A stretch of DNA of 64,000 nt from IMG/VR virus record IMGVR_UViG_3300014205_000200, positions 1 through 64,000 of that record. One strand, given 5' to 3'. Numbering within the stretch: position 1 is the first letter of the stretch; each line of letters starts with the position of its first letter. The position numbers were made by a program, and so were the translations under genes. The notes under the pieces are model-generated. The model worked only from the letters and a program-made list of their open reading frames with translations. It was not told the DNA's origin and made no database searches. Origin of the DNA: a virus. Taxonomy: Duplodnaviria > Caudoviricetes. This document shows positions 10,054 to 52,931 of this stretch, in pieces.

Positions 10054-10065
10054 AAGATTCGGGTC

Positions 10066-11308: not shown

Positions 11309-11314
11309 CGGTCG

Positions 11315-36959: not shown

Positions 36960-37127
36960 GATGGAACGGACAGTTGAGCAGATCAGGTTGGAGCTGGAGG
37001 AAGCGGCCCTCCGGCACGCGATGGGTGGTGGGTCGGCAGACCTGGACCGCCTGGCGCGCGAGCTACTGACGCGGGTTCAGCAGGACGCCACGGGCGACCT
37101 GGTGTTCGAGGCCTTGGAGGCGGCGTG
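36960..37127 (+). CDS. hypothetical protein (55 aa)
   Basis: GGAGG before ATG 36960; TGA overlaps the GTG of the TerL ATPase gene. Confidence 0.45.
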
Positions 37128-38018
37128 ACGGCAGTCTTGAACGTGAACGATCTCGATACCGAGCGGCTCCGGGATCTCCGGCGGTCGCTCGGTATCGGGC
37201 TCAAGATGGGCCGACTCCGGATGACGACCAGCCACACGGCCTTCACCGAAGCGGTCGTGGCTGATGAGAAGGGTCGGCCGATCCGATCCGCCAGCATCCA
37301 CCGGATCTGGGACGCTCACTTTGAAGCCTGCCGGGCGGCCGGGCTCTACTGCGCGATCGTCGCCCCCTTCGGCCACGGCAAGACGGTGCGGAACATCGTC
37401 AGCCGGGCCAGTTACGAGATCGGGCGGGACGTGAACCAACGGATTAAGCTCGTCAGCTCGGTCGACAACAACGCCAAGCACCGCGTGATGGCGGTCAGCA
37501 GCATCCTCAAGAAGGCGGCCTACCGTCGCCTTTACCCGCACGTGCGCGAGATGACGGCCAAGGAGGCGCGGACCAGCGGCGCCCCGAAGGAGTGGACGCA
37601 GCACAGCATCTACCTGAAGCGACCCGGCTTCTCGATCGACCCGACCCTCCAGGCGTTCGGCGTCCTCGGCTCGGGCGTCGGTGCCCGGTGCGACGGCTAC
37701 TTCTTCGACGACGTGGTGGACTTCCGGAACACGCTCGAGAAGCCGGCCCTTCGGGAGAAGGTGATCGACGCGATCGACAACGTCTGGCTGTCGCGACTCG
37801 AGCCCTGGGGGTGGGTGATGTACGTCGGGACGCCCTGGCACGAGTCGGACGCGACCCACTGGATCCTGAAGCAGAAGGGCTGGTCGATCCTGTGGCAGAA
37901 CATCAAATCCGACTTCAGCTGCATCGAGCAGAAGGTCTACAACCCTCCGCCCAACTACCCGATCCCGGCCTACAGCCGGGTCGTTGGCGACTCGATCAAG
38001 AGCGAGCGTTGGGTCTGA
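37125..38018 (+). CDS. terL: terminase large subunit, N-terminal ATPase half
   Basis: APFGHGKT (Walker A), GVLGSGVGARCD, YFFDDVVD (Walker B), VGTPWHESD (motif III); stops before the nuclease domain. Confidence 0.9.
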   Translation: MTAVLNVNDLDTERLRDLRRSLGIGLKMGRLRMTTSHTAFTEAVVADEKGRPIRSASIHRIWDAHFEACRAAGLYCAIVAPFGHGKTVRNIVSRASYEIGRDVNQRIKLVSSVDNNAKHRVMAVSSILKKAAYRRLYPHVREMTAKEARTSGAPKEWTQHSIYLKRPGFSIDPTLQAFGVLGSGVGARCDGYFFDDVVDFRNTLEKPALREKVIDAIDNVWLSRLEPWGWVMYVGTPWHESDATHWILKQKGWSILWQNIKSDFSCIEQKVYNPPPNYPIPAYSRVVGDSIKSERWV

Positions 38019-38044
38019 CGGCGAGGTGGTGGGCTGCTGACCTC

Positions 38045-38060
38045 GAGAACGCGCGTTCTC
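38045..38060. repeat. 16-bp palindrome copy 7 (26 nt after the TerL ATPase stop, abutting a GGGAAGAT motif)
   Basis: Exact. Confidence 0.95.
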
Positions 38061-38076
38061 GGGGGAAGATGGGGGT

Positions 38077-38427
38077 ATGGAACGAGGATCGTGCCTGACG
38101 CTCACCGCCCTGGTTAAAGCCCTGGAGAAGTTCGACCCTGACCAGGTGGTGTCGGCCGGGTTCGGTTCCGCGGATTCGTATCGGGGCTATTACGAAGATC
38201 TCGCCTTTGCGCCCGGGCGCGAGACGACGGTTCGCCAGATGATGATGGTCGCCCGGGCGGCGGAAGGTCAGACCTTCGAGGCCTACAAGGGCGGAAGCTA
38301 CCGGGCCACCGGGGAGACGCTCTGCTGGTTGGCCGACTGGGGTAAGTTGGGTGAGCCGCTCACGTTGGAGCGACTCCTGTCGATGGTGCTCGGTCCGATC
38401 GTTCCGCCCGAGAAGTCGGAGGGTTGA
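38077..38427 (+). CDS. conserved hypothetical phage protein
   Basis: SYRGYYEDLAF...TFEAYKGG; GAAGAT-N6-ATG. Confidence 0.6.
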   Translation: MERGSCLTLTALVKALEKFDPDQVVSAGFGSADSYRGYYEDLAFAPGRETTVRQMMMVARAAEGQTFEAYKGGSYRATGETLCWLADWGKLGEPLTLERLLSMVLGPIVPPEKSEG

Positions 38428-38753
38428 CGATGGAGTCCGAATTCCAAACCGAGCGGGAGGCGGAGCGGACCAGCTATCGGGTCTCGACCGGCGACGTCAT
38501 CCGTCGGGCCCTGATGGAGTTCTTTGCTCGCGAGGGTTGCCCGGTCTCAACCGAGCCCGGGCCCGACACCCCGATTCCGCGCGGCTACCCCGGGACGCCG
38601 GTTCCACGGCCGCCAGTTGTGTCCGTCCTGCCCGGGCGGGAGGAGCGATTGGAGGCGGAGCGTCGCCGGCTGATGGCGCTGGCGAACGACGATCCGGCCT
38701 TCGGGTGGGACTTGAAGCGAGTCGAACTGCAGCTGGCCAGTTTGGAGGAGTAG
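38424..38753 (+). CDS. hypothetical protein
   Basis: 109 aa, overlap chain. Confidence 0.45.
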   Translation: MTMESEFQTEREAERTSYRVSTGDVIRRALMEFFAREGCPVSTEPGPDTPIPRGYPGTPVPRPPVVSVLPGREERLEAERRRLMALANDDPAFGWDLKRVELQLASLEE

Positions 38754-39067
38754 TCATGACCGCAATCAACAGCCCTTCTGAGGTGTCGTCCGTCGACTAC
38801 GGCCCGGTGCAGGCGCGCTACTGGGACGTGACCGACGAAGTGCTGACGACGATGGCGGACTGTCTGGGGGTTCGTTGGCCGGACGAAGAGGCGGCGACGA
38901 TCCGCCACTACCTGGCCGCTACCTTTCAGGAGGTGACCCAGGGGAAGATGGGGGCGACCGACAGCCAGGACCCCGGGCGTAGCGCCGACCGGGTCTGCCG
39001 TTGCTTCAGCCCGGGCGCCTCGGCCGGGGGTCAGTCACCGGGGCGACCTGAACCCAACGGGGGATCG

Positions 39068-39307
39068 ATGAAGAAGGTTTGCGACGGCGGCCCGACGGTG
39101 GAGTTCGGATCCGGCGTGGCGACGATGGAGTGGTACGAGGCCCGGGCGTGCGAGTGGGCGCTGGACCGGGCGGGTTGAAGCGTCCAGCGGGCGGCCCGGA
39201 TGCTCAACATCGGGCGCGCGACCCTGTACCGCAACATTCGGCGGTACGGTTTGGAGCGGTTGGTGGTTCGCGTTCGTCCGGTTCCTTCGCCGGCCTCGGG
39301 TGAGTGA
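39068..39307 (+). pseudogene. Fis-type HTH protein interrupted by an in-frame TGA (39176-39178)
   Basis: TMEWYEARACEWALDRAG*SVQRAARMLNIGRATLYRNIRRYGL. Confidence 0.72.
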
Positions 39308-39530
39308 CGATGCGGGCGTGACGGCCCGATCGCTCGTGCAGGCACTCCGTCGCATCCCGTCCGTCGTCGAGGTTCAGACCTTCGATCGCCCGGCCGGCGG
39401 AGTGGAGGTTCGGCTCTGGGTCTACGAGGGCCCGGGGCCGACCGACCTGTGGTTCGGCCAGCTGGCGGTCCGCCACCTTGGCCTCGAGCTGGCCAGCTTC
39501 GATCTCTACCGGATCCCCCGGGTGGACTAG
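39300..39530 (+). CDS. hypothetical protein
   Basis: 76 aa. Confidence 0.45.
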   Translation: MSDDAGVTARSLVQALRRIPSVVEVQTFDRPAGGVEVRLWVYEGPGPTDLWFGQLAVRHLGLELASFDLYRIPRVD

Positions 39531-39534
39531 GGCC

Positions 39535-39550
39535 GAGAACGCGCGTTCTT
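39535..39550. repeat. 16-bp palindrome copy 8 (15/16)
   Basis: GAGAACGCGCGTTCTT. Confidence 0.85.
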
Positions 39551-39586
39551 GTTTAGTCCACCCGTCCGAAGGGAAGATGGGTGCCG

Positions 39587-39826
39587 ATGAGCAGCCCCGA
39601 CGACGAGAAGGTCAACCACCCACCGCACTACGGCGGCGACACCACCTACGAGGTGATCAAGGTCCTGGACGCCTGGCAGATTGGGTTCACGCTCGGCAAC
39701 GTGGTCAAGTACGTCGCCCGGGCGGGGAAGAAGGGCGACGAGTCATCGTTGGTCGATCTCAAGAAGGCGGCCTGGTACCTGGCGCACGAGATCGAACGAC
39801 GGGAGAAGGCCGAAGCTGGTCGGTGA
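39587..39826 (+). CDS. DUF3310-like protein
   Basis: VNHPPHY...EVIKV...GFTLGNVVKYVARAGKKG...DLKKAAWYL. Confidence 0.85.
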   Translation: MSSPDDEKVNHPPHYGGDTTYEVIKVLDAWQIGFTLGNVVKYVARAGKKGDESSLVDLKKAAWYLAHEIERREKAEAGR

Positions 39827-40443
39827 TGGACCATCGCCGCTACCGGCCGCCCTTCTGGAAATCCAAGGACCGGGGCCCGAACGGCCGTCGGCTGTGCCGC
39901 CAGTGCGGGACCGAGGTACCGAAGGGCCGGCAGACCTGGTGTAGTAAGGCGTGCGTCGACCACTACACCGACCGGACGCCGGCCGGGTTCCGGAAGGCCG
40001 TCCTGGACGCCTCGGACGGCCGGTGTGCGCTGTGCGGGTGGGATGTCCGCTGGTTGATTGCGCGGTACGATCGGATCCTGAGGCGTCAGTCGCGGCTCGT
40101 CGGCCGGTGGTTCGATCGGGAGCAGGCGGCTCTCCGGCGGGCCCTCCGCCATCCGGGCCGCCGTCACCGCCCTCGGTCGTACCCCCGGCGGTGGTTGGGC
40201 TCGTGGTTGAGGGGGTGGCTCGCCCGACGGGGCGTCGACCTGTCGCGGTCGCTCCTGGAGGCCGACCACACGGTCCCGCTGATCGAGGGCGGGGACTTCG
40301 GTACCGCCAACGGTCGGGCGCTCTGCCGGCCCTGCCACAAGGCCCAGACGGCCGATCTGGCGAAGCGTCGGGCGGTCGGGCGGACGAGGCCCCGGCGGGT
40401 GCGCTCCTGGGGGGCGGGGCAGGGGGGAAGATCGAATCCATGA
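39826..40443 (+). CDS. HNH endonuclease with N-terminal zinc finger
   Basis: CRQCG...WCSKAC; CALCG; EADHTVPLIEGG...NGRALCRPCH. Confidence 0.85.
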   Translation: MDHRRYRPPFWKSKDRGPNGRRLCRQCGTEVPKGRQTWCSKACVDHYTDRTPAGFRKAVLDASDGRCALCGWDVRWLIARYDRILRRQSRLVGRWFDREQAALRRALRHPGRRHRPRSYPRRWLGSWLRGWLARRGVDLSRSLLEADHTVPLIEGGDFGTANGRALCRPCHKAQTADLAKRRAVGRTRPRRVRSWGAGQGGRSNP

Positions 40444-40655
40444 AGGCGATCAAAGGTATTCAGGTGGACGTCTACCCCGACCGGAGCGCGACCGGTTGGA
40501 ACTTCCTGGTTCAGCGCGAGGCCCCGACGCCGGAGGGCGAGCCTCACCTGAGCATGAGCGGGCACGCGGTCGAGCGGGCTCACGCGCTCGCGATGGCGGA
40601 GCGGATGGCGAAGGTGCTACGACTTGAGCTACGGGGCTTCGGGGTGAAGCTGTGA
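40440..40655 (+). CDS. hypothetical protein
   Basis: GAAGAT-N7-ATG. Confidence 0.5.
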   Translation: MKAIKGIQVDVYPDRSATGWNFLVQREAPTPEGEPHLSMSGHAVERAHALAMAERMAKVLRLELRGFGVKL

Positions 40656-41224
40656 TGGAGCCGCTCGACCGGCTGAAGGACATGATCTCCCGAGTGGGCT
40701 TCAGGGACCTGGTGTTGAGCGAGGGAAAGAAGGCGCATCAGGGTGTCCGGTTCTCAACCGACGACGACGGGCCGGGGATCGTGGTCTCGGCGGCGGGAAC
40801 TCGTTCCGTCGGTGGTGAGATCCCGGAAGGGATCTGCGTCGTCGACGTGGACTACGCTCTCTTTTGGCCCGAGCAGTGGGGCCTGCTGTCGGCCCGCAAG
40901 CTCGAGACGCTGACGGTCCAGAGCCCTCACGGGATTCATCTCTACTACCAGCTCCCCGAGCCGGCGAAGCGCATGTTCCCCTACCGGGTCGTCGATCTGA
41001 TGAACAGCCGGCTCGTGATGGGGACCGGGGGTGTGGTGCAGTCGGGCGGTGGCCCGACGAAGCGGTCGGTCGACTTCCTGGGGGTGGGGTGGATCGTCAT
41101 TCCGCCATCGCCCGGCTACATCCTCGTCAACCCGAGCCCGATCGCCCGGCTACCGCTCCCGATCGCCCGGTCGGTGTTGGGGGCCTTCTGGGACGATCGG
41201 GGAGCGTCGATGTGGTGGCGGTGA
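40652..41224 (+). CDS. bifunctional primase-polymerase (Prim-Pol) N-terminal-like domain
   Basis: VVDVD, TVQSPHGIHLYY, VDFLGVGWIVIPPS. Confidence 0.65.
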   Translation: MMEPLDRLKDMISRVGFRDLVLSEGKKAHQGVRFSTDDDGPGIVVSAAGTRSVGGEIPEGICVVDVDYALFWPEQWGLLSARKLETLTVQSPHGIHLYYQLPEPAKRMFPYRVVDLMNSRLVMGTGGVVQSGGGPTKRSVDFLGVGWIVIPPSPGYILVNPSPIARLPLPIARSVLGAFWDDRGASMWWR

Positions 41225-41292
41225 CGGCCTTCCGGATCGTCGCCCTGGCGGCCATCTTCAGCTACGCTCTGTGGGCGTTGCTGAGGTGATGG

Positions 41293-41520
41293 TTGCCGTC
41301 GATACGATCCACCCCGACCTGTCGCCGCCTTCGCCGTCGTCGCATCCGGACGATGGAGAAGGACCCCTGGTCGGGCGTCTACCAGCCGGGCGACTGGCGG
41401 TGGACGACCGAGCGATGTGGCGCCATGGTGGACGAAGCCGGACAGGAGTGCCCGGCCTGCGCGGTCGGCCTTCAGACGGACGATGACCAACTGATCCCCG
41501 AGATCGACCCGACCGGGTAG
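41293..41520 (+). CDS. small zinc-ribbon protein
   Basis: RCG...ECPACA. Confidence 0.4.
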   Translation: MPSIRSTPTCRRLRRRRIRTMEKDPWSGVYQPGDWRWTTERCGAMVDEAGQECPACAVGLQTDDDQLIPEIDPTG

Positions 41521-41538
41521 CGGGGGGAAGATGGTCCC

Positions 41539-41757
41539 GTGATGGAACCAGAGTCCCCCTGTCTGCATTGTGGCCAGCTGTTGGCCGGGCTGGCGCTCGT
41601 GCGCGAGTGCCCGATCTGCGCGATGGTGGGCTTGTGCCGGGCCTGCCTGGAGGAGCACGAGGGCGACTGCCAGGTGGGGGACGATCCCGACGTAGCGGTC
41701 GATCCCGGGCCCGACGGCGCGGACGAGCTGGACCACGACATCTGGGAGGTCGAATGA
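41539..41757 (+). CDS. small Cys-rich acidic protein
   Basis: CLHCG, CPIC, CRAC; GAAGAT-N6-GTG. Confidence 0.55.
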   Translation: MMEPESPCLHCGQLLAGLALVRECPICAMVGLCRACLEEHEGDCQVGDDPDVAVDPGPDGADELDHDIWEVE

Positions 41758-41966
41758 TCGACCCTGAAGCGCAGGAAGCGTGGGACCGCCAGGTCGCCCA
41801 CATGAAGTCGGTCGGCCAGTTGGATCCGTGCCCGGATGGGTCCTACTTCTGGCACGTAAGCGGCCAGGTGTGGCACGTGAAACCTTCTCTAAGCCTGAAG
41901 ACGATCGTCTGGCATCTTCATCGGTCGGCGGTCGAACCGACGCAAGAAGGTGGCTTGCAACCGTAA
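41754..41966 (+). CDS. hypothetical protein
   Basis: ATGA overlap. Confidence 0.4.
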   Translation: MIDPEAQEAWDRQVAHMKSVGQLDPCPDGSYFWHVSGQVWHVKPSLSLKTIVWHLHRSAVEPTQEGGLQP

Positions 41967-41990
41967 CGTTCTGCCCTTCATTCTCGGTGC

Positions 41991-42521
41991 ATGACGGAGG
42001 ACATCCGCCCCCCGCCGTTGACGCCCGTCGAGGAGGCGGCGATGGATCCGCGTGCTCGGTTCCGTTTGATCGAGCAGCGCCACCAGCAGGTCTTCCGGTC
42101 CCACTCGGGCGGTCCGGAGGCGGTCCTGGCCGCCTACCACTACGCGACGATGTACTTCCTGCGCGACACCGGCTTCCTGCTGGCCGAGTTGAAGCGGGCC
42201 TGGCAGGCGTTGGATCTGAAGGCACCGGCCGGGTCGCGGGAGGCGCCGAGTGCCCCGGTCTACGTTCAGGGTCCGGTGCCGGTCCTGCCTCCTAGGCCTC
42301 ATCAACCCAGCCAGCCGGTCCCGACGATGAAGCGGCCGGTCTCGGGGCCGACTCCGCCGCCGCCCCGGTACCCGCCCCCGCTGCCGGTCGATTCGGAGCT
42401 GATCAGCCGCATCAGCCAGGCGGTCGCGCGGGAGATCACCGGGCACCGGCAGATCGAGAGCGACGACGTGGATGAGCTGTTCCGCGAGCTTCAGGGGCCG
42501 GACCCGTCCGACGTGGAATGA
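41991..42521 (+). CDS. Pro-rich hypothetical protein
   Basis: 176 aa; TGA stop overlaps the palindrome. Confidence 0.55.
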   Translation: MTEDIRPPPLTPVEEAAMDPRARFRLIEQRHQQVFRSHSGGPEAVLAAYHYATMYFLRDTGFLLAELKRAWQALDLKAPAGSREAPSAPVYVQGPVPVLPPRPHQPSQPVPTMKRPVSGPTPPPPRYPPPLPVDSELISRISQAVAREITGHRQIESDDVDELFRELQGPDPSDVE

Positions 42522-42535
42522 GAACGCGCGTTCTC
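42520..42535. repeat. 16-bp palindrome copy 9 (overlaps a TGA stop, abutting a GGGAAGAT motif)
   Basis: Exact. Confidence 0.95.
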
Positions 42536-42572
42536 GGGGGAAGATGGCGTCGATGTTGTTAGAGGGAGTCGG

Positions 42573-42785
42573 GTGAAGGTGAATTCCACATGCTCGGTCT
42601 GCGGAGCGCCGGTCCAGATCGGCGATCGGATCTTCGTCTTGGTGACGGAGGACGGGCCGACGATCTCCCACGGGTGGTGCTTCCAACACCGGAGCTTCGG
42701 CTTCGAGCCCGACCAGAACCCAACGCTCCTCCACGCGCTCGAGGCCCGGGCCCGGTTGGCCTACGACCAGACGGGGGAAGCGTGA
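42573..42785 (+). CDS. small zinc-finger protein
   Basis: CSVCG...HGWC. Confidence 0.5.
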   Translation: MKVNSTCSVCGAPVQIGDRIFVLVTEDGPTISHGWCFQHRSFGFEPDQNPTLLHALEARARLAYDQTGEA

Positions 42786-43180
42786 ACCGCGGGCACGTCG
42801 AGGTCGTGGCGTTGATCCAGTGCGCGGCCGAGGTCTGCCTGGCGGCCCTGCAGGAGAGCGTGGGCCGGAAGCTCCTCCGCGCCCCGGTGCGGCCGGACGT
42901 CTACTACGGGTGCGTCATGAAGGCGGTCGGGCAGATCGATCTGGTGTTGCGGGTCCAGTGGGGGGCGGCCGGGATGCGGGCCGGCCCGATCGCGCTGGCG
43001 GTCCAGGCGGTCGACCTGCTGCGGCTCGGGATCACGATCGCGAACGCCAACCCGGCCGACGACTGGCTCCCCGTCCTGGTCCGCCGGGCCCATCAGCTGA
43101 CGGTCCTGGCCGGCCGGGGGAAGATGGCGATCGATGGCCCGACGAGACCCGACCGCCCTGCCGATGATGAGGAACGCTAG
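42782..43180 (+). CDS. hypothetical protein
   Basis: GTG overlap with the previous stop. Confidence 0.4.
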   Translation: MNRGHVEVVALIQCAAEVCLAALQESVGRKLLRAPVRPDVYYGCVMKAVGQIDLVLRVQWGAAGMRAGPIALAVQAVDLLRLGITIANANPADDWLPVLVRRAHQLTVLAGRGKMAIDGPTRPDRPADDEER

Positions 43181-43523
43181 CCTAGCGGCGGACCAGTACC
43201 GAGGCCTGGCGGCCGACTGGCACTTCGTCGTCTGCCGGTGTGGGTCCCGCTACCGGGTGGTCGGCCGAGCGGTCTTGGTTCGGCGAGAGGGTTGCCCGAG
43301 ATGCGGGCCCGACCCGGAGTGGCGCTACCGGTCGGCTGTCCGCCATCTGGTGTTCGAGGTCGAGTACTCCGGCGCCCCCGATCGGCTGGGTCGGCGTCAC
43401 GCCACCGTCCGGTGGGTCGAGCCCGGCAGCGGTCTTGAACGAGGCCAGGTCTTCTTCGGCTTCCCGGAGGAGATCGAGGCCCGGCTGCCCGGGCGGCGGG
43501 TTGTCGTCGAGGCGATCCGCTGA
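43134..43523 (+). CDS. hypothetical protein with zinc ribbon
   Basis: CRCG...CPRCG; GAAGAT-N8-ATG. Confidence 0.5.
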   Translation: MARRDPTALPMMRNASLAADQYRGLAADWHFVVCRCGSRYRVVGRAVLVRREGCPRCGPDPEWRYRSAVRHLVFEVEYSGAPDRLGRRHATVRWVEPGSGLERGQVFFGFPEEIEARLPGRRVVVEAIR

Positions 43524-43541
43524 CGAGGGAAGATGGGGGTC

Positions 43542-44537
43542 ATGACGGAACCCCGCTTCCATACGCTCACCCGCGAAGGCATCACGGTCAAGGTCGTGGC
43601 CGACAACCGGAACCCGGCCGGCAGTCGGCTGACGACGCTGGCCTGCACCTATCCGCGCTTCATCCACTCAGAGGTGATGACCCACCGGGTCTTCAGCCGG
43701 AATGCCGCCAGCTCGCGTGCGATCCCGACCCGGGCCCTTCAGGACCGGGTCTGGAAGGACCCGGCCGCCCCGGTCTTCTGGGGCGCCGAGCAGAAGGGGA
43801 TGCAGGCCGAAGGCGAGCTGTCGGACGAGGAGGCGGATCGCCGGTCGGTCATGAACCGCGACGGCGGGTATGAGGACCTTACGCCTCGTCAGTACGCGCA
43901 GCAGCGGTGGTCGACCGCCCGGTTGGATATGCTGCGGGCCGCCCGTGAGCTGAGCGACCTAGGGAGCGCCCACCCGGATTGGAAGGGGGTCGGGCTCCAC
44001 AAGCAGCTGGCCAACCGGCTGATCGAACCCTGGATGTCGATCACGACCCTCATCACGGCGACCCACTGGCGGGGCTTCCTTCACCAACGGGCCCACCCGG
44101 CGGCGATGCCGGAGTTCCGCGTCCTGGCCGAGTTGATCGGGGAGGTGCTCGAGACCCGGGCGCCGGTTCAGCTCCGGTTTGGTGAGTGGCACTTGCCGTT
44201 CGTCCTCGATGCCGAGAAGGCGAACGACGTCCCGGAAGGCGCGGCCGGCTTCCGCCACCCGCTGGTGCGGATCTCCACCGGCCGGTGTGCTCGGGTCAGC
44301 TACCTGAACCACGAAGGCGTCAGCCGGCCGGACGAGGACCGGGCGCTGGCCGATCGGTTGGAGCACGCCGATCGACCGGAAGAGCCCGGGCACTGGAGCC
44401 CGTTCGAGCACCAGGCCACCGCGCTGAGCCCGTTCGGCGCGGTGCCGAACCCGACCGCCCGGTCGCTCCACGGCAATTTCCATCCGAGTTGGATCCAGCA
44501 CCGGAAGCTCTTCGAGCGCGAGAACCAGGAGGGGTGA
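43542..44537 (+). CDS. thyX: FAD-dependent thymidylate synthase (ThyX-like)
   Basis: PRFIHSEVMTHRVFSRNAASSRAIP, HKQLANRLIEPW, RCARVSY, HWSPFEHQA. Confidence 0.85.
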   Translation: MTEPRFHTLTREGITVKVVADNRNPAGSRLTTLACTYPRFIHSEVMTHRVFSRNAASSRAIPTRALQDRVWKDPAAPVFWGAEQKGMQAEGELSDEEADRRSVMNRDGGYEDLTPRQYAQQRWSTARLDMLRAARELSDLGSAHPDWKGVGLHKQLANRLIEPWMSITTLITATHWRGFLHQRAHPAAMPEFRVLAELIGEVLETRAPVQLRFGEWHLPFVLDAEKANDVPEGAAGFRHPLVRISTGRCARVSYLNHEGVSRPDEDRALADRLEHADRPEEPGHWSPFEHQATALSPFGAVPNPTARSLHGNFHPSWIQHRKLFERENQEG

Positions 44538-44623
44538 TGGGGCGATCGCGATCTTGGTGAAGCTATGCCGGGAGGTGAGGCGATGAAAGACTGGTACGAC
44601 AACACGCCGGATCGGGGGCCGCA

Positions 44624-44857
44624 ATGAAGGAGTTGTACTGGCACTGCCTTGAGTGCGGAGCCAACGATCCCGTCGAGCCCACGGGCGGCACGGAAGAGTA
44701 CGTGCTGGGCGACCACGAGCCGTGCATCACATGCGGCACTGGGACCGCGCACGTGATGACGATCCGTCTCGGCGCGGCCTATGAGCAAGGGCGCGCGCTC
44801 GGCATGAGCATCAGAGATGCGTGGGCGCGCGCCCGGCAGATGGTGGTGCGAGCATGA
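44624..44857 (+). CDS. small zinc-ribbon protein
   Basis: HCLECG...CITCG. Confidence 0.5.
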   Translation: MKELYWHCLECGANDPVEPTGGTEEYVLGDHEPCITCGTGTAHVMTIRLGAAYEQGRALGMSIRDAWARARQMVVRA

Positions 44858-45183: not shown

Positions 45184-45574
45184 GACGGCGCTCGACTGGT
45201 TCCGGCTCAGCCCCAGCAACCCGGCTTTCGTTCGCGTCGACCCCGCCACCGGCCGGCTGGTCGGGCGGGCGGACGAACGCGAACAGGCCGCCTACCTCGC
45301 CCAACCGGCCCGCCATCCGGCGTTCCGCCAGCCGGTTCGGGTCGGGGCTTTCTTGATCGACCTCGCCACCGGCCCGGGCGCCTGGCTGGGGGGTGCCGGG
45401 TTCTAGGCCCGGTCCGCGGCTGGAGGCAAGGCTCCGCCCGGGGCTGCAGGTCGTCTCGGGGGATCCGGGTTGCCCGCTTGGGGCCCGGCCGGGCGCCGGA
45501 CAGGGTGGGACCGCTGAGGAGCCGGGCCCGGGGTCCCTGAGGCTGGCGAACCGGCGGGCCGCCCGGCCGGGTAG

Positions 45575-45659
45575 CCCAACCCCGAGTAGCCCTCCGGTTT
45601 TGACGATTGGTACGATTTCGGTTTTACGGAAACGATTTCGGCGCTATGCTCTCTTTATG
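45575..45659 (+). promoter_or_regulatory. repeated promoter module 1 (TTTACG-17-TATGCT, leaderless ATG)
   Basis: CCCAACCCCGAG...TCCGGTTTTGACGATTGGTACGATTTCGGTTTTACGGAAACGATTTCGGCGCTATGCTCTCTTTATG. Confidence 0.85.
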
Positions 45660-45911
45660 AACCGAACGCTGCACCTCGAAGGCTACGAACCGAATTTCGC
45701 CGGGCTCGACTCCTGGGCGTTTCACACGCGGAAGGCCGAGAACGCTCGAATCGAGATCGCCCACTTCAAGGGCCGGCTCGAGGAAGAGTACGCCAACCAG
45801 CGGGCCCGGGTGCCGGGGGCCGGCCGGATGATCCAGCTGGTGCTGCTGAAGCTGGCCAGCGCGCACGAGGCGGCGGCCGATGCCGAGGAGGCGCTGGCTT
45901 GGTTGAGCTAG
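45657..45911 (+). CDS. early-type hypothetical protein
   Basis: Starts 6 nt after TATGCT of module 1. Confidence 0.6.
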   Translation: MNRTLHLEGYEPNFAGLDSWAFHTRKAENARIEIAHFKGRLEEEYANQRARVPGAGRMIQLVLLKLASAHEAAADAEEALAWLS

Positions 45912-45914
45912 GCC

Positions 45915-45930
45915 GAGAACGCGCGTTCTC
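45915..45930. repeat. 16-bp palindrome copy 10 (intergenic)
   Basis: Exact. Confidence 0.95.
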
Positions 45931-46006
45931 GGGGGAGGGGTGAGCCTCTCCCCCGGGGGCCGAGTGGGGCGAGTGAGCCTCAGAGGAAGAGGGGAAGGAA
46001 CGACAA

Positions 46007-46411
46007 ATGAGCGGAGGAGATTTGCTTCACGTCTACACCACCACCCGGCCGGACGGCTCCGAGAGCGCCCACACGGCGGTCTTCCAAGAGCCCGACGACA
46101 CGATCAAGGTCTACACCTCGTCCGGTCCGGTGATCGTCATCCGACCCGACGGCCCGGTGGTTCAGATCCTGAGGGACGCCGGCCTGGCGGCGGAGCCGGT
46201 CCTGAACGCCTCCGCCCGGCGGGCGGCCGAACGGACCCAGGCCCGGCGGTCAACCGGGCTGGTCGCCCGGGAGGCGCTGTCGGCCCGGCTGGTCGAGCGC
46301 GGGGTCGACACCTTCGAGGCGTCGCTCGATGAGCGCGGGTGGGTGGTGGTGGCGCTTTCGCCTGCGGAGGCTGGCCGGCTGGGCGACCTGCTGGGGAGGG
46401 AGGATCGATGA
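46007..46411 (+). CDS. hypothetical protein
   Basis: 134 aa; AG-rich upstream. Confidence 0.55.
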   Translation: MSGGDLLHVYTTTRPDGSESAHTAVFQEPDDTIKVYTSSGPVIVIRPDGPVVQILRDAGLAAEPVLNASARRAAERTQARRSTGLVAREALSARLVERGVDTFEASLDERGWVVVALSPAEAGRLGDLLGREDR

Positions 46412-46731
46412 ATACCGAAATCGAGATCGGTGCCACCCCGTACGACGAGCCGTGTGCCCAGGTGGGGGAGCCGGGCTACGAGGAGCGGGCCCGGGCCGAG
46501 TGCCGGGTGTTCATCCGGCAGATCCGTCGGGCGATCGGGCCCGAACCGGCGGGCGCCCGGTTGGTAGTGCGCTCGCATTCGCACGACTTCGGCCTCTACC
46601 AGGAGGTCGGGCTTCGGTTCGACGACGATGACGAGGCCCAGGCGCGGTACGCCGCCAAGCTGGAGGACAGCGTCCCAGACCGGTGGGACGAGACCGCCCG
46701 GATCGAGCTGGGCTTGGAGGTGGGCGCGTGA
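46408..46731 (+). CDS. conserved hypothetical protein
   Basis: IGATPYDEPCAQVG...RAECRVFIRQ...HDFGLYQEV. Confidence 0.6.
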   Translation: MNTEIEIGATPYDEPCAQVGEPGYEERARAECRVFIRQIRRAIGPEPAGARLVVRSHSHDFGLYQEVGLRFDDDDEAQARYAAKLEDSVPDRWDETARIELGLEVGA

Positions 46732-46861
46732 AGGCCAAACTACGGTGGGGCCCGGCCCTCCTGCTGTGCCCAGTCGCCGTCTTGGCGTTCGCTTGCCAGT
46801 ACGGCCCGGTCGTCAACCAGGCGATCATCCTTTTACGAGCCCTGTTGAACGGGAGGTAGCG

Positions 46862-47293
46862 ATGAAGACGTACGGGTACAACGGGCTGGCGGGGTGCGTG
46901 GCGCAGGTGAAGAACCGGGAGACCGGCCGGCTGGTGGGCCTTTACCGTAACGACCAGGCCGATCTCGACGACGATGACGGTGCGTGGTCGACCGTCTGCG
47001 AGCCGCACGGGATGCTGGTCAACCACGCGACGCTCGCGCTCGCCAGGAGCCACCTGGCGGCCCCGGGCGATTGGTGTGAGGACTGTGCCGCGCTCGCTCG
47101 CGATGGACAGGTGGCGGACGGGACGGTGTCGGTCACGTCGACCGCGCCCGAGAAGGCTCTTGAGTTCTGCCGGACGCGGCTCGGGATCTCGCCGGCCCGG
47201 ATCGGGCGCCTGACGGACGCCGGCCCGGTGTCGCTCCCCGGCTTTCCGCCCGGCACCCGCCGGTTCGTCATCAGCCTGGTCGAGCGCGCCTGA
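46862..47293 (+). CDS. hypothetical protein
   Basis: GGAGG upstream; W.TVCEPHG...WCEDC. Confidence 0.55.
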   Translation: MKTYGYNGLAGCVAQVKNRETGRLVGLYRNDQADLDDDDGAWSTVCEPHGMLVNHATLALARSHLAAPGDWCEDCAALARDGQVADGTVSVTSTAPEKALEFCRTRLGISPARIGRLTDAGPVSLPGFPPGTRRFVISLVERA

Positions 47294-47299
47294 GGACCG

Positions 47300-47374
47300 C
47301 AACCCCGGGCCACCCTCCGGCTTCTACGATTGGTACGATTTCGGTTTTACGGCCTCCGACTTCGGAGGTATGAT
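47300..47374 (+). promoter_or_regulatory. repeated promoter module 2 (variant; TTTACG-17-TATGAT, no ATG at +6)
   Basis: Same 5' part as module 1; spacer replaced by inverted repeat CCTCCG-actt-CGGAGG. Confidence 0.7.
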
Positions 47375-47457
47375 GGGGGGTCAGGTTGGTTCCCGTTCGT
47401 CGCCAGGCGGCCCGGCTCGCCCGGGCGGATCCGGGCCCGGGCGGTCGCCCCCCGGGT

Positions 47458-47542
47458 CCCAACCCCGAGCAGCGCTCCGGCTTCGACGATCGTTACGATT
47501 TCGGCTTTACGAGAACCATTTCGGCGCTATGCTCTCTTTATG
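47458..47542 (+). promoter_or_regulatory. repeated promoter module 3
   Basis: Near-identical to module 1 with several substitutions. Confidence 0.85.
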
Positions 47543-47722
47543 AAGAACGAAGTGCGAGTCGAGACGGTTCGAATCATCCTCACCGAGGAGCAGAAGAAGG
47601 CGATTGCCTTCGGCGAGGACGTCATCCTGGCCTACTGGAAGACGGTCAACACGGCCAAGGGTCGCCGGATGGTCAAGAGCGTCGAGAAGAAGCTCTACTA
47701 CATGCGGCTCGGGCTGGCCTAA
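47540..47722 (+). CDS. early-type hypothetical protein
   Basis: Starts at the module 3 ATG. Confidence 0.6.
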   Translation: MKNEVRVETVRIILTEEQKKAIAFGEDVILAYWKTVNTAKGRRMVKSVEKKLYYMRLGLA

Positions 47723-47811
47723 GGCCCGGGCCTCGGGCCCCCCTCGGGGGGCCGGTTCGCCCCGCCTGGGTCCCGTTGGGACGCCGGGTTGTGGCGGTCC
47801 GTGGTCGGGCC

Positions 47812-47825
47812 GATAGCATGCTATC
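47812..47825. promoter_or_regulatory. 14-bp palindrome GATAGCATGCTATC (partial copy GCAGCATGCTATC near 48916-48928)
   Basis: Read directly; upstream of modules 4 and 5. Confidence 0.4.
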
Positions 47826-47871
47826 CGATCCGGGCCGGCCGGTTGGGGGACCTTGGGGGAGGCCGTTCCTA

Positions 47872-47954
47872 CAACCCCGAGCGACCCTCCGGCTTTGACG
47901 ATTGGTACGATTTCGGTTTTACGGAAACGATTTCGGCGCTATGCTCTCTTTATG
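47872..47954 (+). promoter_or_regulatory. repeated promoter module 4
   Basis: Near-identical to module 1. Confidence 0.85.
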
Positions 47955-48203
47955 AAGAGCAAGTGGGGCAACGAGAAGCGAGAGCGAGAGAACGGCCGGT
48001 TCGCGGTGTCGGAGGCGTGCGACTGCTGTGGCAAGGGGACCGGTCGGGATTACTGCACCGACGATGAGGTCTGCGGTGGCACGGACGGCCCGGGGTTCTT
48101 TCTCTGTGCCCGGGCACGGTGCCGGGCGAAGGTTGAGGGCCTGGGGGTCGAGGAGCGGCGGGTGCTCTACACGGCCCAGCGGGCGGCGAACCGGGCCCGC
48201 TAG
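47952..48203 (+). CDS. early-type Cys-rich protein
   Basis: CDCCGK...CTDDEVCGGTDGPGFFLC; starts at the module 4 ATG. Confidence 0.6.
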   Translation: MKSKWGNEKRERENGRFAVSEACDCCGKGTGRDYCTDDEVCGGTDGPGFFLCARARCRAKVEGLGVEERRVLYTAQRAANRAR

Positions 48204-48250
48204 GCCCAGACGACGGAACCGGGCCCGCTAGGGCCCAGAAGGAGAACGAG

Positions 48251-48583
48251 ATGAACGAGACCGCCAAGACTGAGGCCTACGGCTACGAGATCCTGTACCG
48301 GGGCCAGTGGGTCATGGACGCCGGTCCCCGGGCGGCGGACGCCTACCGGCTGGCGCTCCAGCTCAGCGCCCACTACGCCCACCCGGGTCTGGTGACCCTT
48401 GTCCGCATGTGGGCCACCACCCGGCCGGGCGAGCGCGCGGTCTGGATCCAGCGCCCGGTGGCGCTCTTCGTGGCCGGTCGCCAGCAGACCGGCGACCGCA
48501 GCTGGCAGTCCTTCCGGACGCCGGCCCCCGCCCCCGCCCCCCTGTCGGCCCGGTGCTTCTGGGCGGAAGTGAGGTGCTCGTGA
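48251..48583 (+). CDS. hypothetical protein
   Basis: GGAG upstream. Confidence 0.45.
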   Translation: MNETAKTEAYGYEILYRGQWVMDAGPRAADAYRLALQLSAHYAHPGLVTLVRMWATTRPGERAVWIQRPVALFVAGRQQTGDRSWQSFRTPAPAPAPLSARCFWAEVRCS

Positions 48584-48885
48584 TCCGCCCGCTCGACCTG
48601 AGCCCCCGGGGGTTCCTTCCCGTCCGCCCGATCTCGCCGGCCGAGACCGACCCGCTGCGGGCGGTCCAGCATGGCGCCAGCTGGTGCCCGCCCGAATTCC
48701 AGGCTGACCTTGGGCGTGCTCTGGCGGAGGCCAGCCGGGTCGCCGGCTTGCTCCGGACCCACCGGGAGGCCGACCGGGTTCTGGCCTGGCTGGGGCATGA
48801 GGGCTACGGCCCGCTGACCAGCAAACGGCTGACCGTCGAGTGCCTGCTGGTGGAGGCCTGGTTCCCCCACCGGATCGTCCGCTAG
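48580..48885 (+). CDS. hypothetical protein
   Basis: GTGA overlap. Confidence 0.4.
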   Translation: MIRPLDLSPRGFLPVRPISPAETDPLRAVQHGASWCPPEFQADLGRALAEASRVAGLLRTHREADRVLAWLGHEGYGPLTSKRLTVECLLVEAWFPHRIVR

Positions 48886-48963
48886 CGGTCCCGGGCGGTC
48901 CGCCGGGCCCGGTCGGCAGCATGCTATCGGGGGCGGTGGGCCGACGCCGTGGGACCGCCGGGT

Positions 48964-49048
48964 CCCAACCCCGAGCGACCCTCCGGTTTTGACGATTGGT
49001 ACGATTTCGGTTTTACGGAAACGATTTCGGCGCTATGCTCTCTTTATG
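48964..49048 (+). promoter_or_regulatory. repeated promoter module 5
   Basis: Near-identical to module 1. Confidence 0.85.
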
Positions 49049-49324
49049 AAGAACGAAGTGGTCAGCGAGGCGGTAAAGGTGTGCAGCGAGGCGGTTCGGG
49101 CGATTGACGCCCTCCGCGCCAGTGAGCGGTTCACCCCGTTCGCGGGTTGGTACCGGGGCGACCACGCGAAGGCCCGGACGGCGGTCCGCCGGGCGGTCGA
49201 GGCGGTCGAGGCGATCGCCAGCTCGGAGGAGGAGAAGGAGCTGTGCCGCCTCTTCCTGGCGGCTCTTCGGAAGAAGGCTCCGCTCCCCGGTGAGCTTCGG
49301 GCCGCGCTCGTGAGGGAGGTCTAA
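49046..49324 (+). CDS. early-type hypothetical protein
   Basis: Starts at the module 5 ATG; first codons MKNEV are the same as in the module 3 gene. Confidence 0.6.
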   Translation: MKNEVVSEAVKVCSEAVRAIDALRASERFTPFAGWYRGDHAKARTAVRRAVEAVEAIASSEEEKELCRLFLAALRKKAPLPGELRAALVREV

Positions 49325-49498
49325 GATGCGGTACGTGATTGTCGACGGACAGGTTCTCCCGGTCGGGACCCCTGAGGAGCACCGGGCCGCCCGACTGGCG
49401 GTTGAGGCGGCCGGGCTCTTCTCGGCGGAGGTTTACGAGGGACCGGTGGCGACGGGCCTCCGGGTGTTTTGCTTGGCCCGAGTGGCCGGAGGTGCGTG

Positions 49499-49897
49499 GT
49501 GAACGACTACATCGGTCGAAAGAAGGAGTGCGTGATGATGGAACAGTGGAAGGCCCGGTTGTTGGCCGAGATCGATAAGGAGAGCAACGAGCTGTCGAGG
49601 CTGAACGCTCGGCACGGCCTAGAGGGGTGGCTGAATTCTTTCTGGCTCTTCGAGGAAGCCGTCGTCTGCGAGACGAAGGTGGAGCACTACAAGGCCTTGT
49701 TGCTCGCCCTCAACAAGGGTCGGATCTCGAAGAGGGAGGATTTGGCCGACTACTTGGAGCGCCTCGTCGAGCAGATGCTCGAGTGGCTTCCCGTGCGGTC
49801 TACCGACCCGGTGGCGGTCGCGATTGACGTCTATCGCCACAAGGGTCGTGAACGGTTCGTTCAGTTCATCCGCGTCTTGCTGAAGGAGGAGAGCTGA
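49499..49897 (+). CDS. helical hypothetical protein
   Basis: GGAGG upstream of GTG. Confidence 0.5.
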   Translation: MNDYIGRKKECVMMEQWKARLLAEIDKESNELSRLNARHGLEGWLNSFWLFEEAVVCETKVEHYKALLLALNKGRISKREDLADYLERLVEQMLEWLPVRSTDPVAVAIDVYRHKGRERFVQFIRVLLKEES

Positions 49898-50202
49898 TGG
49901 ACTGTCCGGAGTGCGGGGGCGCTGGCCAGCGATGCGTGAAGCTCCTCGGCGCCACCGATCCGGTTGATGGCCCGGTCGACTGTGGGCGGTGTGGCGGAAC
50001 CGGCCAGCTGAGTACGCGCGTTCTCGCCGATCCGTTCTCCGTCCAACCGATGCCGGGCCAACCGGCCTACACGCTCGAGGAGGCCGCCCGGGTGTCGGCT
50101 CTGGTGGAGTCGGCGGCGGAGGCGTCCGACCGCTACGGCGACGACGAGCTAGAGTACTGGGCGAGTCAGATGCGGCCCAGGCCGCGGAGGAGGGGATCGT
50201 GA
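49897..50202 (+). CDS. DnaJ-type CxxCxGxG zinc-finger protein
   Basis: CPECGGAG...CGRCGGTG. Confidence 0.6.
   Translation: MDCPECGGAGQRCVKLLGATDPVDGPVDCGRCGGTGQLSTRVLADPFSVQPMPGQPAYTLEEAARVSALVESAAEASDRYGDDELEYWASQMRPRPRRRGS
50010..50025. repeat. 16-bp palindrome copy 11 (15/16, coding)
   Basis: GAGTACGCGCGTTCTC. Confidence 0.8.
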
Positions 50203-51056
50203 GATCGAGAGATGTGGTCGACGCCTTGATGTTCTGCTTGATGCTCGCCGGATGCGCGCTCGCGATGACGATGATCGGGTGCGCCGAACCGGCCCTGGTG
50301 GTCGGGACCTTCAACGTCCGGTACGACACCGAGCAGGACGGCCCCGACGCTTGGTCGGCCGGCCGGCGACACCGGGTCGAGCTGGCGATCCGGGCGCTCG
50401 ACCCCGACGTGATGGCGATCCAGGAGCTGCTGCCTCGCCAGCTCGAGGAGCTGCGGGCCGATCTGGCGGACGGCTGGCTGCTTGAGTCGGCCGACGCGGG
50501 CGGTTCGCCCCAGAGCAACGCGATCCTCTACCGGGGCGCCCGACTTCGGCTGACCGGTGTCGAGCGTCGGTGGCTGGGCCCCGACCCGACCATCCCGGGA
50601 AGCCGGTGGGGCGACGCCTACCCGCGGGTCGCTCTCCGGGCCTCGCTGGTCGACCGGCTGACCGGCGAGGCGTTCCGCTTCACCGCGACCCACACGAACG
50701 GCGGAGGGCCGGCCGGCCGGGCTGAGTGGGACCAGCTGATGAAAGAGTTCGCCCCCCAGCCGGGCGACATCCTGGGGGGCGACTTCAATGAGCTGTGGGG
50801 GCCGAACGTTTGGGGCCTCGCCCCTGGGGGCCCTCGGGCGCGTGAGGCCGGCTGGGACGACCTGGTGGGGCCGGCGACCGCACCTCCGGCCGGCTGGTCG
50901 GGCGGGCCGCCCGGTGCCGCCTGGGATCCGACCGGCCGAGTCGACTGGCTGGTGGGTGCCGGGTTCGAGGTCCTGTCTTCGACGGTGGCGCCGATCCGGG
51001 TCGACGGCCGGGCGTGTTCGGACCACTGGCCCGTGACTGCGACGGTGGTCCGATGA
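50199..51056 (+). CDS. endonuclease/exonuclease/phosphatase (EEP) family protein with putative lipoprotein signal
   Basis: TFNVRYD, DVMAIQE, THT, GGDFN, RVDWL, SDHWPV; N-terminal hydrophobic stretch ending LAGC. Confidence 0.85.
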   Translation: MRSRDVVDALMFCLMLAGCALAMTMIGCAEPALVVGTFNVRYDTEQDGPDAWSAGRRHRVELAIRALDPDVMAIQELLPRQLEELRADLADGWLLESADAGGSPQSNAILYRGARLRLTGVERRWLGPDPTIPGSRWGDAYPRVALRASLVDRLTGEAFRFTATHTNGGGPAGRAEWDQLMKEFAPQPGDILGGDFNELWGPNVWGLAPGGPRAREAGWDDLVGPATAPPAGWSGGPPGAAWDPTGRVDWLVGAGFEVLSSTVAPIRVDGRACSDHWPVTATVVR

Positions 51057-51436
51057 TCGCCGAGGACGTGCGGGGGTTCTTGCGACGGAATCGGGGCGAG
51101 TGGTCGACGACCGAATTGTGGGCCGAGTTCGACTTCAGGGTCTCGAGGGACGGGCTCTGCGATTCCCTGGCGAGGTTGGAGCGGGCCGGCCTGGTCGCCC
51201 GGCAACTCAGCCCGGGTGGCAAACATCCCTACCGATGGTCCTCGACCGAAGCCGACACCCGGCCGCCGCTTACGCACGATCTCCATCCAGCGGACGGTCG
51301 CACGCGGGAGCAGGTGTGGGATTCGATCCAGCGTTTTTGCGACCGTCTCCGGGCCGCTACTGGCGTGGTCGATGTTCGTGAGGGGAAGATGGCGTCGGAT
51401 GAAGACAAGCCTGAGCGTAGAGGGGCCGACGGTTGA
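51053..51436 (+). CDS. winged-helix protein
   Basis: WSTTELWAEF...LCDSLARLERAGLVAR...YRW. Confidence 0.55.
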   Translation: MIAEDVRGFLRRNRGEWSTTELWAEFDFRVSRDGLCDSLARLERAGLVARQLSPGGKHPYRWSSTEADTRPPLTHDLHPADGRTREQVWDSIQRFCDRLRAATGVVDVREGKMASDEDKPERRGADG

Positions 51437-51812
51437 AGACGGCCCGGTAGAGATCGTGGGGGTCAGCCGAGGGTCGTGGACGATCGTCCCGCACCAACCC
51501 GAGCCTGACCCCTACGCTGAGTTGCTGCGACTCGTAGACGATCCGGATCTGGTCGCACTCGCCCCTGAGTTGACGCCGGCCGATCGGGCCCGGTTCCTGT
51601 TGTCCGGGATCCGGCAGGCCGCCCGGGGCGGTCCGAAGCGAGTTCCCCACCCGGGTGCGGTGCCGATCGTCGAGGCGGCCCGCCGGTTCGTCGAGACGAT
51701 CAACCGGATCAAGCCACCACTCGAGACGATGAAGTCCCTTCAAGACGAACCGGTCGACCCCGCCAGCTGGTCGGAGCTGGCGAAGCTGGCGAAAAATGAG
51801 GAGCCCGAATGA
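51399..51812 (+). CDS. hypothetical protein
   Basis: GAAGAT-N8-ATG. Confidence 0.45.
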   Translation: MKTSLSVEGPTVEDGPVEIVGVSRGSWTIVPHQPEPDPYAELLRLVDDPDLVALAPELTPADRARFLLSGIRQAARGGPKRVPHPGAVPIVEAARRFVETINRIKPPLETMKSLQDEPVDPASWSELAKLAKNEEPE

Positions 51813-52003
51813 CGCAAGCCGAGAAGTCCCAGCTGGCCCGAGAGATCTTCCTGATGCGGTTGGCGTCGCTTCCTCCGGGGGAAGGGCTCCAGCAGCACCG
51901 CCAGCAGATCGACGACGAGGCCGAGCTGGCCGCCTACGCGGTCGAGTCGTTGGCGATTTCGTTGGACGTCTACGGGGAGCGGTCGGATGCCGGCGGCGAG
52001 TGA
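51809..52003 (+). CDS. hypothetical protein
   Basis: ATGA overlap. Confidence 0.45.
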   Translation: MTQAEKSQLAREIFLMRLASLPPGEGLQQHRQQIDDEAELAAYAVESLAISLDVYGERSDAGGE

Positions 52004-52107
52004 TCTGTACCTGAGCTTCTGGATCTTCGCCTCGGGCTTTTCGGCCGGGATGGCGACCGTGGTGGGATTGCTTCTCTACGCTCTCTTCCGTACCAATATC
52101 GGAATCG

Positions 52108-52917
52108 ATGTCGATCCCGATCAAGCTCGCCCCCCTACCGCTATGGACCGACCGTTGGGACGAAGCGGCCCTGAGGGAACGGCATCGTCGCAACCCTCGC
52201 CAGTTCGCCCGGGGGTTCTTCATGCAGGCGATGGTCGACGGCGAGAACACGTTTCCGTCGTTCGAGAAGTGCCGCCAGCCGGGCCTAGTGCTCGGCGATC
52301 TGATCCGCAATAGCTGGCCCTGCTTCACGGGCGTGGACCTGTCGTCGACCAAGCGACCCGGAAACGCGATCGTCACCGTCAAGCTCGACCCGATCCAGAA
52401 GCGACGCTTCCCGGTCGACATTCGGTTCGGGCGCTGGCGATCGAACGAGCTGTGCGAGGCCATCCAGCAGGTCAACAACCAGTTCCACCCGGCCGTCATC
52501 ATGGTCGAGAACAACGGCTACCAGGAGTCGCTGATCGACTGGGTGGGCGACCAGAAGAACCGGTTCGACTTTTGGATGAAGGTCGAACCGACCACCACCA
52601 CGAGCGGCACCAAGGCCCACGCCGACATCGGGCTCCCCGGTTTGGAGGTGGAGTTCGCCCACGGTGCCTGGTCGATCCCCTATTCGGAGTACGAGCACCT
52701 GACGGGCGGGGAGGGGATCGGTGCCACGAACGAGGACGAGGACGAAGAGGACGGCGCGCCCGGAACGCTGCACTCCGACTGGCGGGCCCGCCAGTGGGCC
52801 CGATGGGACTATGAGTTTCGCCATCACCCGATGGCGGCCACCAACGACGGCGTGATGGCGACCTGGTTCGCCCGGCAGGGGATCGAGCTATATAGCGGCT
52901 ACCTCCAGCCCGGGTGA
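52108..52917 (+). CDS. terL: terminase large subunit, linker + C-terminal RNase H-fold nuclease half
   Basis: LPLWTDRWDEAALRER...FARGFFMQA linker; FTGVDLSS, IMVENNGYQ, NDGVMATWFA acidic triad. Confidence 0.85.
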   Translation: MSIPIKLAPLPLWTDRWDEAALRERHRRNPRQFARGFFMQAMVDGENTFPSFEKCRQPGLVLGDLIRNSWPCFTGVDLSSTKRPGNAIVTVKLDPIQKRRFPVDIRFGRWRSNELCEAIQQVNNQFHPAVIMVENNGYQESLIDWVGDQKNRFDFWMKVEPTTTTSGTKAHADIGLPGLEVEFAHGAWSIPYSEYEHLTGGEGIGATNEDEDEEDGAPGTLHSDWRARQWARWDYEFRHHPMAATNDGVMATWFARQGIELYSGYLQPG

Positions 52918-52931
52918 GAACGCGCGTTCTC
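52916..52931. repeat. 16-bp palindrome copy 12 (overlaps the TGA stop of the TerL nuclease half)
   Basis: Exact. Confidence 0.95.

Follow-up and report, generated by a model that had tools for sequence, protein, structure and literature searches.

The 64,000-nt stretch analysed here, hereafter the window, comprises the first 64 kb of an 89,161-bp viral contig of IMG/VR (linear class, CheckV completeness 78%, G+C content of about 67%), with almost all of its genes on the + strand. The subject of this work is its large terminase subunit (TerL), the parts of which are found in two genes. The first gene (37125..38018, + strand) encodes the TerL ATPase-core subunit P0001 of 297 residues, in which Walker A (GHGKT, residues 83-87), Walker B (FFDD, 193-196) and motif III (GTPW, 235-238) are followed by a C-terminal strand and tail (residues 257-297) that run to the break. 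The second gene (52108..52917, + strand) encodes the TerL lid-plus-nuclease subunit P0002 of 269 residues. It starts with LPLW...FARGFFMQA, its residues 1-42 correspond to an ATPase-domain strand and two lid helices, and its residues 43-267 form an RNase H-like nuclease carrying GVD (75-77), VENN (133-136) and NDGVMA (246-251). A first-pass annotation of the window had pointed out both open reading frames (ORFs) and their motifs, and had considered the two pieces to be complementary. Both ORFs and motifs were read directly at these coordinates, and the pieces are indeed complementary since P0001 covers positions 270-471 (E-value 4e-18) and P0002 positions 486-628 (E-value 1e-8) of phrog_38, the TerL profile of PHROGs. 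The whole contig has no phrog_38 match other than these two halves. Separated by 14,089 bp and each provided with a start and a stop of its own, they do not form the one polypeptide by which TerL is recognized.

The P0001 profile matched solved T7-type terminases (PDB 8dgc_E, E-value 3e-8, and 4bij, E-value 1.6e-7), and residues G85, K86, D195, D196 and T236 of the ATPase half are invariant in 16 homologues. The acidic residues D77, E134 and D247 of the nuclease half are likewise invariant, in 27 homologues; the loss of conserved residues, which the first-pass annotation would have taken as the mark of a pseudogene, was therefore seen in neither half. Neither P0001 nor P0002 has a Pfam match at E-values up to 1. 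Because the profile search of P0002 against PDB sequences gave only chance matches to eIF5B, fold comparison was needed for the nuclease half. The AlphaFold2 (AF2) model of P0002, with a predicted local distance difference test (pLDDT) value of 82, matched TerL nuclease domains at Z 13.5-16.3 versus Z 9.9 for RuvC. The best fold match was the G20c TerL nuclease 5m1k_A (Z 16.3, root-mean-square deviation 2.5 Å over 166 residues, model residues 43-260). Solved nuclease domains align to residues 43-267 only. In the lid segment ahead of them (residues 1-42), L7 is invariant, W13 and L22 are nearly so and an RGF motif is strongly kept. The window nuclease also has an acidic insert of about 25-30 residues with low pLDDT (NEDEDEEDG..., residues ~199-228), at a place where deeper relatives have a Cys-rich H..C.C.WC motif; the position is possibly that of a lost zinc site.

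The first-pass annotation had proposed an alignment of the halves to an intact TerL. An exhaustive HMMER search with P0002 led to fused relatives, the closest of which is P0101 (546 residues), and the two halves are collinear with it. Residues 17-260 of P0101 align to residues 38-281 of P0001 with 40% identity and zero gaps, and residues 293-536 align to residues 5-260 of P0002 with 43% identity. In the AF2 model of P0101 (pLDDT 87, predicted template modelling score 0.86), the unaligned residues 261-292 are a loop with block pLDDT values of 49-61. This loop is flanked by strands 245-251 and 292-299, after which come two helices (310-329) and then the nuclease, and in the 32 fused relatives compared the corresponding stretch has between 0 and 41 residues. 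As the loop lies between strands of the ATPase domain in the model, the cut is placed inside that domain. On this modelled structure the nuclease gene holds not only the nuclease but also the last ATPase strand and the lid helices.

The same far split was found in at least 13 other independent assemblies from different samples, which answers the search for relatives with the same break suggested in the first-pass annotation. The gap from ATPase gene to nuclease gene is 10.5-18.0 kb in 12 IMG/VR records, and the halves are 13.3 kb apart in the Logan contig SRR12404950_19612 (Logan distances were derived from the record coordinates of the two halves). P0001 and P0002 also occur on another contig, 89,312 bp long. 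The closest relative (79% and 72% identical) has its halves on two contigs from the same sample, where other genes extend over at least 9.3 kb and at least 6.2 kb beside them. Homologues of either half are mostly stand-alone and of the same length. Those of the ATPase half have 240-399 residues, all with the same end boundary, and the 227 nuclease-domain relatives include 139 stand-alone proteins, which start at the same boundary, and 60 fused ones. No second TerL, named beforehand as grounds for refutation, was detected in the contig, either with phrog_38 or with four other TerL ATPase families, and the two halves are the sole phrog_38 matches in five records that are 96-100% complete according to CheckV. 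Each half is present once in all seven relatives with at least 90% completeness. Measured versus the nearest relative, the ratio of nonsynonymous to synonymous substitution rates (dN/dS) is 0.28 in the ATPase half and 0.20 in the nuclease half; values versus a 45%-identical relative were discarded as unreliable, dS being about 1. Pairwise identities of the two halves co-vary over 31 genomes (r = 0.83). From these comparisons we consider the split to be neither misassembly nor decay and both halves to be under purifying selection.

In order to describe the arrangements of the two halves, we surveyed 80 IMG/VR loci together with Logan loci. TerL is fused at 44 loci, and the split halves are adjacent at 8 loci (some of which may be frameshifts), 0.5-1.6 kb apart at 2, 5.5 or 8.1 kb apart at 2, and more than 10 kb apart at 14, the window counted. 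One locus has the reversed order and 12 were left undetermined. The nuclease tree has a 32-row clade, with a value of 94 in the Shimodaira-Hasegawa-like approximate likelihood ratio test (SH-aLRT), that is dominated by far-split genomes; nested in it are the fused locus L007, the adjacent loci L093, L013 and L016, and the reversed locus L025. The larger tree has at least 13 changes between split and fused states, and therefore the same loop has been cut or rejoined repeatedly. Judging from gene order, the stable units are a small-terminase-like (TerS-like) gene with the ATPase gene on one side, and the nuclease gene with the portal and head genes on the other. Most probably, the cut came about in a loop at the surface which varies in length and withstands breakage, and in the far-split clade the space between the genes then became a slot for fast-changing accessory genes.

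The reversed locus (L025, IMG/VR record G018, 81,905 bp, CheckV 100%) has the order nuclease, TerS-like gene and ATPase at ~9885-12428. Compared to L013 and L016, its nuclease is 84-89% and its ATPase 56-59% identical, and lineages appear to have exchanged one half. Its lid segment and nuclease are in different reading frames, as they are in three other contigs (L021-L023). TGA recoding was considered for this locus and rejected: the one TGA is an ordinary stop codon, and the real feature is the frameshift between lid segment and nuclease.

Complex prediction for the two halves gave 0.85 in each of three runs, whereas the best of three controls gave 0.01. The mark applied to such values is reached by 58 of 80 solved complexes and by 2 of 110 mismatched pairs, and is a rough one here as the alignments were our own. 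The runs had at least 89% contact agreement and partner pLDDT values of at least 78. In the predicted interface, ATPase residues 54-61, 79-84, 200-205, 236-249 and 257-283 contact residues 1-43 of the nuclease chain. This pairing of ATPase residues 257-283 and the P-loop neighbourhood with the start of the nuclease chain is what fragment complementation predicts.

Given two conserved, distant genes and a cut in a motor-domain loop, two chains most likely come together to form the motor. We put the probability that this phage makes a two-chain large terminase at roughly 0.8, inferring assembly and motor function from the separate genes, their conservation, their collinearity with one-chain TerL and the position of the cut. 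Each gene would be translated separately from its own start and stop, and the products would associate non-covalently by fragment complementation. The 40-odd N-terminal residues of the nuclease chain would be packed over the P-loop and paired with the C-terminal strand of the other chain, and the TerL protomer so rebuilt would work like a one-chain T7-type TerL. The first-pass annotation had also proposed a bipartite motor with halves that assemble in trans. The conserved split, purifying selection, collinearity and predicted complex agree with that proposal; its division into an ATPase and a nuclease has to be revised, the cut not being at the boundary of these domains. Four points weigh against a two-chain motor. 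The complex prediction may reflect likeness to one-chain TerLs rather than binding, because such TerLs have been solved. In some adjacent-split relatives the ORFs overlap and a frameshift artefact could account for the split, which leaves the far-split cases unaffected. The Shine-Dalgarno sequence of the nuclease gene is weak (GGAAT). Finally, the window contig being 78% complete, a second terminase in its missing part is excluded only by analogy with the complete relatives.

Each half has conserved neighbours. Upstream of the ATPase gene is a candidate small terminase of 329 residues with an N-terminal helix-turn-helix (35959..36948, + strand). The first-pass annotation had placed a TerS-like gene here, and the position stands, since homologues occupy it in relatives (L004 45%, L005 28% and L009 32% identity) and are always directly upstream of the ATPase-core gene; the assigned role goes by this position and by a weak HTH_32 match under the cut-off (E-value 1e-3). 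An ORF of 55 residues follows (36961..37128, + strand). Its stop codon and the GTG with which the ATPase gene starts overlap (GTGA), and GGAGG is found 4 nt ahead of the GTG. The overlap suggests translational coupling. The L004 homologue of this ORF is 75% identical, and a 55-residue gene also precedes the fused TerL of L007. In a subclade of ATPase halves (P0006, P0007, P0009, P0010 and P0012; for example L003:10001-11083 and L005:10001-11089) a C-terminal KTSC domain (PF13619) is found directly past the break, at residues 295-351 in P0009. Such an addition could be a docking or regulatory module. L003 (8388-8621) and L005 (8694-8972) have, about 1 kb before their TerS-like and ATPase genes, a gene for an Acb2/Tad1-hairpin protein (PF24729, anti-CBASS/Thoeris sponge family). 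On the other side, the portal gene (56004..58091, + strand; SPP1_portal 31.5 bits versus a cut-off of 25.5) lies 3.1 kb past the nuclease gene, in line with the 3 kb noted earlier, and begins the conserved head module. Portals with 33-48% identity to its product occur in 10 related loci, in every case following the nuclease gene or the fused TerL. Synteny with relatives extends over the genes that come after the nuclease gene (at 53944, 54873 and 55456, the portal, and 58709).

Between the halves lies a hypervariable cargo block of about 29 ORFs (38077..52003, + strand), most of them without a family match. About 30 ORFs in or next to the block were scanned, all but three with Pfam and ten with PHROGs. 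The first-pass annotation had described about 30 unrelated same-strand ORFs here, and their number and strand were borne out, as were ThyX (43533-44537, + strand) and a nuclease/phosphatase of the EEP family (49989-51056, + strand); the HNH and Prim-Pol genes that it also listed had no match among the scanned ORFs. The block further contains a DUF3310 gene (39581-39826, + strand). About five of its ORFs have a homologue in L004, whose ATPase half is 79% identical, and almost none in more distant relatives. In L003 and L005, a DUF4942 methyltransferase lies within the cargo block. The 16-bp perfect palindrome reported after each half, GAGAACGCGCGTTCTC, is present at both places. At 38045..38060 it lies 27 nt past the ATPase stop and is followed by GGGGGAAGATGGGGG and the ATG of the next gene, and at 52916..52931 it overlaps the nuclease stop codon, with the next gene's GGGGGAAGATGGGGG-ATG module coming after it. 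The window has 13 copies of GAGAACGCGCGTTCTC (5814-62237) versus 0.05 expected, mostly at or near gene junctions; besides the one flanking each end of the cargo block, four are inside it. None of the fetched loci of relatives contains it, and it is probably a phage-specific operator or promoter module.

The clade was without an isolate among the 50,697 cultured-phage records that we searched with tblastn: the nuclease half had no match in this collection, and the ATPase half matched only the TerL of Roseobacter phage CRP-5 (31% identity). A pattern scan of IMG/VR with P0001 alone returned zero relatives, whereas an alignment-based scan with the nuclease half did find them. The wider family, mostly in the fused form, occurs in metagenome-assembled genomes (MAGs) of Xenobia, Dehalococcoidia, Latescibacterota, Gemmatimonadetes and Planctomycetales. 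One fused TerL with 34% identity to the nuclease half (L090, Candidatus Latescibacterota MAG chromosome OZ252228.1, ~7.01 Mb) is inside an 8-Mb chromosome; it is presumably part of a prophage and provides a host lead for the wider family.

The two genes could also be explained without a complex of their products, the ATPase core alone being the motor, as with phi29 gp16, and the nuclease a free cutter that forms no stable complex with it. The location of the genes in different modules with a palindrome module after each, the fluid order and distance of the halves among relatives, the half swapped in one lineage and the extra KTSC domain on some ATPase halves would all suit such independence. 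We nevertheless consider it unlikely, since the nuclease chain opens with 42 residues that are elements of the ATPase domain and not of the nuclease, the residues conserved in this lid segment are predicted to pack against the P-loop region, the halves co-diverge overall, and both occur once each in the near-complete relatives. An artefact or decay, that is, a chimeric assembly or a defective phage with a terL broken by insertion, is hardly credible. In its favour, the contig is metagenomic, linear in class and incomplete, but the same proteins are on the second contig, the same architecture recurs in other samples, both halves are under purifying selection with invariant catalytic residues, and 139 stand-alone homologues keep their starts and stops at the same boundary.

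A single chain might finally be restored if the RNAs were trans-spliced, if a split intein joined the proteins, or if the 14-kb block were excised in a regulated manner, as the sigK skin element is. Inteins are real in the TerL family of the window. Pfam identified a P-loop insert of about 390 residues as a LAGLIDADG homing-endonuclease intein in the ATPase halves of two far-split relatives (L095:433-2418 in G001, and L099:269-2323, minus strand, in G006), and the fused relative P0107 (987 residues) has a LAGLIDADG intein as well. Inteins therefore invade this family, but at the P-loop and not at the break. In neither half of the window was there an intein match (Pfam, E-values up to 1), as the first-pass annotation had observed of their ends, and the same Intein_splicing model detects the P-loop inteins of relatives as a positive control. 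The tails are also too short for split-intein halves, with 41 residues past the last aligned ATPase residue and about 4 before the first aligned nuclease residue. The long-range or trans-splicing offered as an alternative by the first-pass annotation fared no better: Rfam had nothing in the window at gathering score and nothing within 1.3 kb of either junction at E-values up to 1, start and stop positions are conserved, the KTSC domain of relatives extends the ATPase reading frame beyond the break, and the gene order is reversed in one relative. As for excision, the longest direct repeat common to both junctions is 11 nt versus a random mean of 11.8, no recombinase family was found among the scanned ORFs, and the second palindrome sits past the nuclease gene and not ahead of it. 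Restoration of a single chain is thus very improbable, and a terminase assembled from two chains remains our preferred reading.

Tailed phages and herpesviruses have TerL as their hallmark enzyme, and it is taken as one chain in structural models, annotation and marker-gene phylogenies. Pipelines that seek a TerL of about 500 residues would miss or mis-score the whole clade, and Pfam is blank for both halves. In models of P74-26 and T4 terminases the lid is thought to couple ATP hydrolysis to DNA movement. With the lid on the nuclease polypeptide, direct tests of communication between ATPase, lid and nuclease, and of nuclease tethering during packaging, become possible. The case also bears on genome plasticity, as a cut gene has opened into a gap of 10-18 kb that serves as a slot for fast-changing cargo. 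Whether the split is adaptive and not merely tolerated, as a modular heterodimer with the force-transmitting lid supplied in trans, is a more speculative matter, and we hold it to be doubtful. If it were adaptive, the amounts or timing of the halves could be set independently, one half could be exchanged by recombination, as the G018 lineage appears to show, and the intact two-domain TerL surface would perhaps be hidden from the Avs-type STAND immune sensors that recognise it (PDB 8DGC is a complex of this kind).

Among known systems, the terminase of the window is close to the one-chain T7-type TerL (T7 gp19, 4BIJ; PhiV-1, 8DGC chain E; PHROG 38). It resembles these in the sequence family of the ATPase core, the nuclease fold, the catalytic motifs, and the order of ATPase core, lid and nuclease. 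It differs in having two polypeptides, cut before the last ATPase strand and lid helices, with genes 14 kb apart in different modules, and in its low identity to the solved proteins, the nuclease half being undetectable by sequence against PDB. The names 'ATPase subunit' and 'endonuclease subunit' in P2 were considered as a precedent and set aside, since they refer to the large and small subunits and not to a split TerL. Herpesvirus pUL15 is encoded in two exons, with whole genes in the interrupting DNA. Phage terL genes interrupted by group I introns are known from Jug phages (PMC12880540) and Twort (PMC13729910), and a terL with an intein from cyanophage Mic1 (PMC7156551). All of these have TerL coding sequence interrupted by other DNA, as in the window, but they end as one chain, whereas the halves described here have no intron, intein or splice signal and each has a conserved start and stop. 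Intron and intein interruptions were the only ones found in our literature search (subscription journals were not covered), which returned no TerL described as stand-alone ATPase and nuclease genes.

Proteins that lack one part of TerL, or that are split in a similar way, are also known. The phi29 protein gp16, an ASCE packaging ATPase that stands alone, lacks a nuclease domain on its chain and needs a packaging RNA (pRNA); phi29 does without a terminase nuclease because unit-length, protein-primed genomes are packaged. The ATPase chain of the window likewise lacks a nuclease domain, but its phage keeps the nuclease as a gene that carries part of the ATPase domain. Parallels to the split itself are the split NrdA of Aeromonas phage Aeh1 and the T4 gp39/gp60 topoisomerase, in which a one-chain enzyme is encoded in two genes and thought to reassemble non-covalently. 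No homing endonuclease was detected at the junction in the window. The likeness is that of an essential enzyme made as two separately translated genes; the difference is in what separates them, the splits of Aeh1 and T4 holding a homing-endonuclease gene or a short insert and those described here 10-18 kb of variable cargo.

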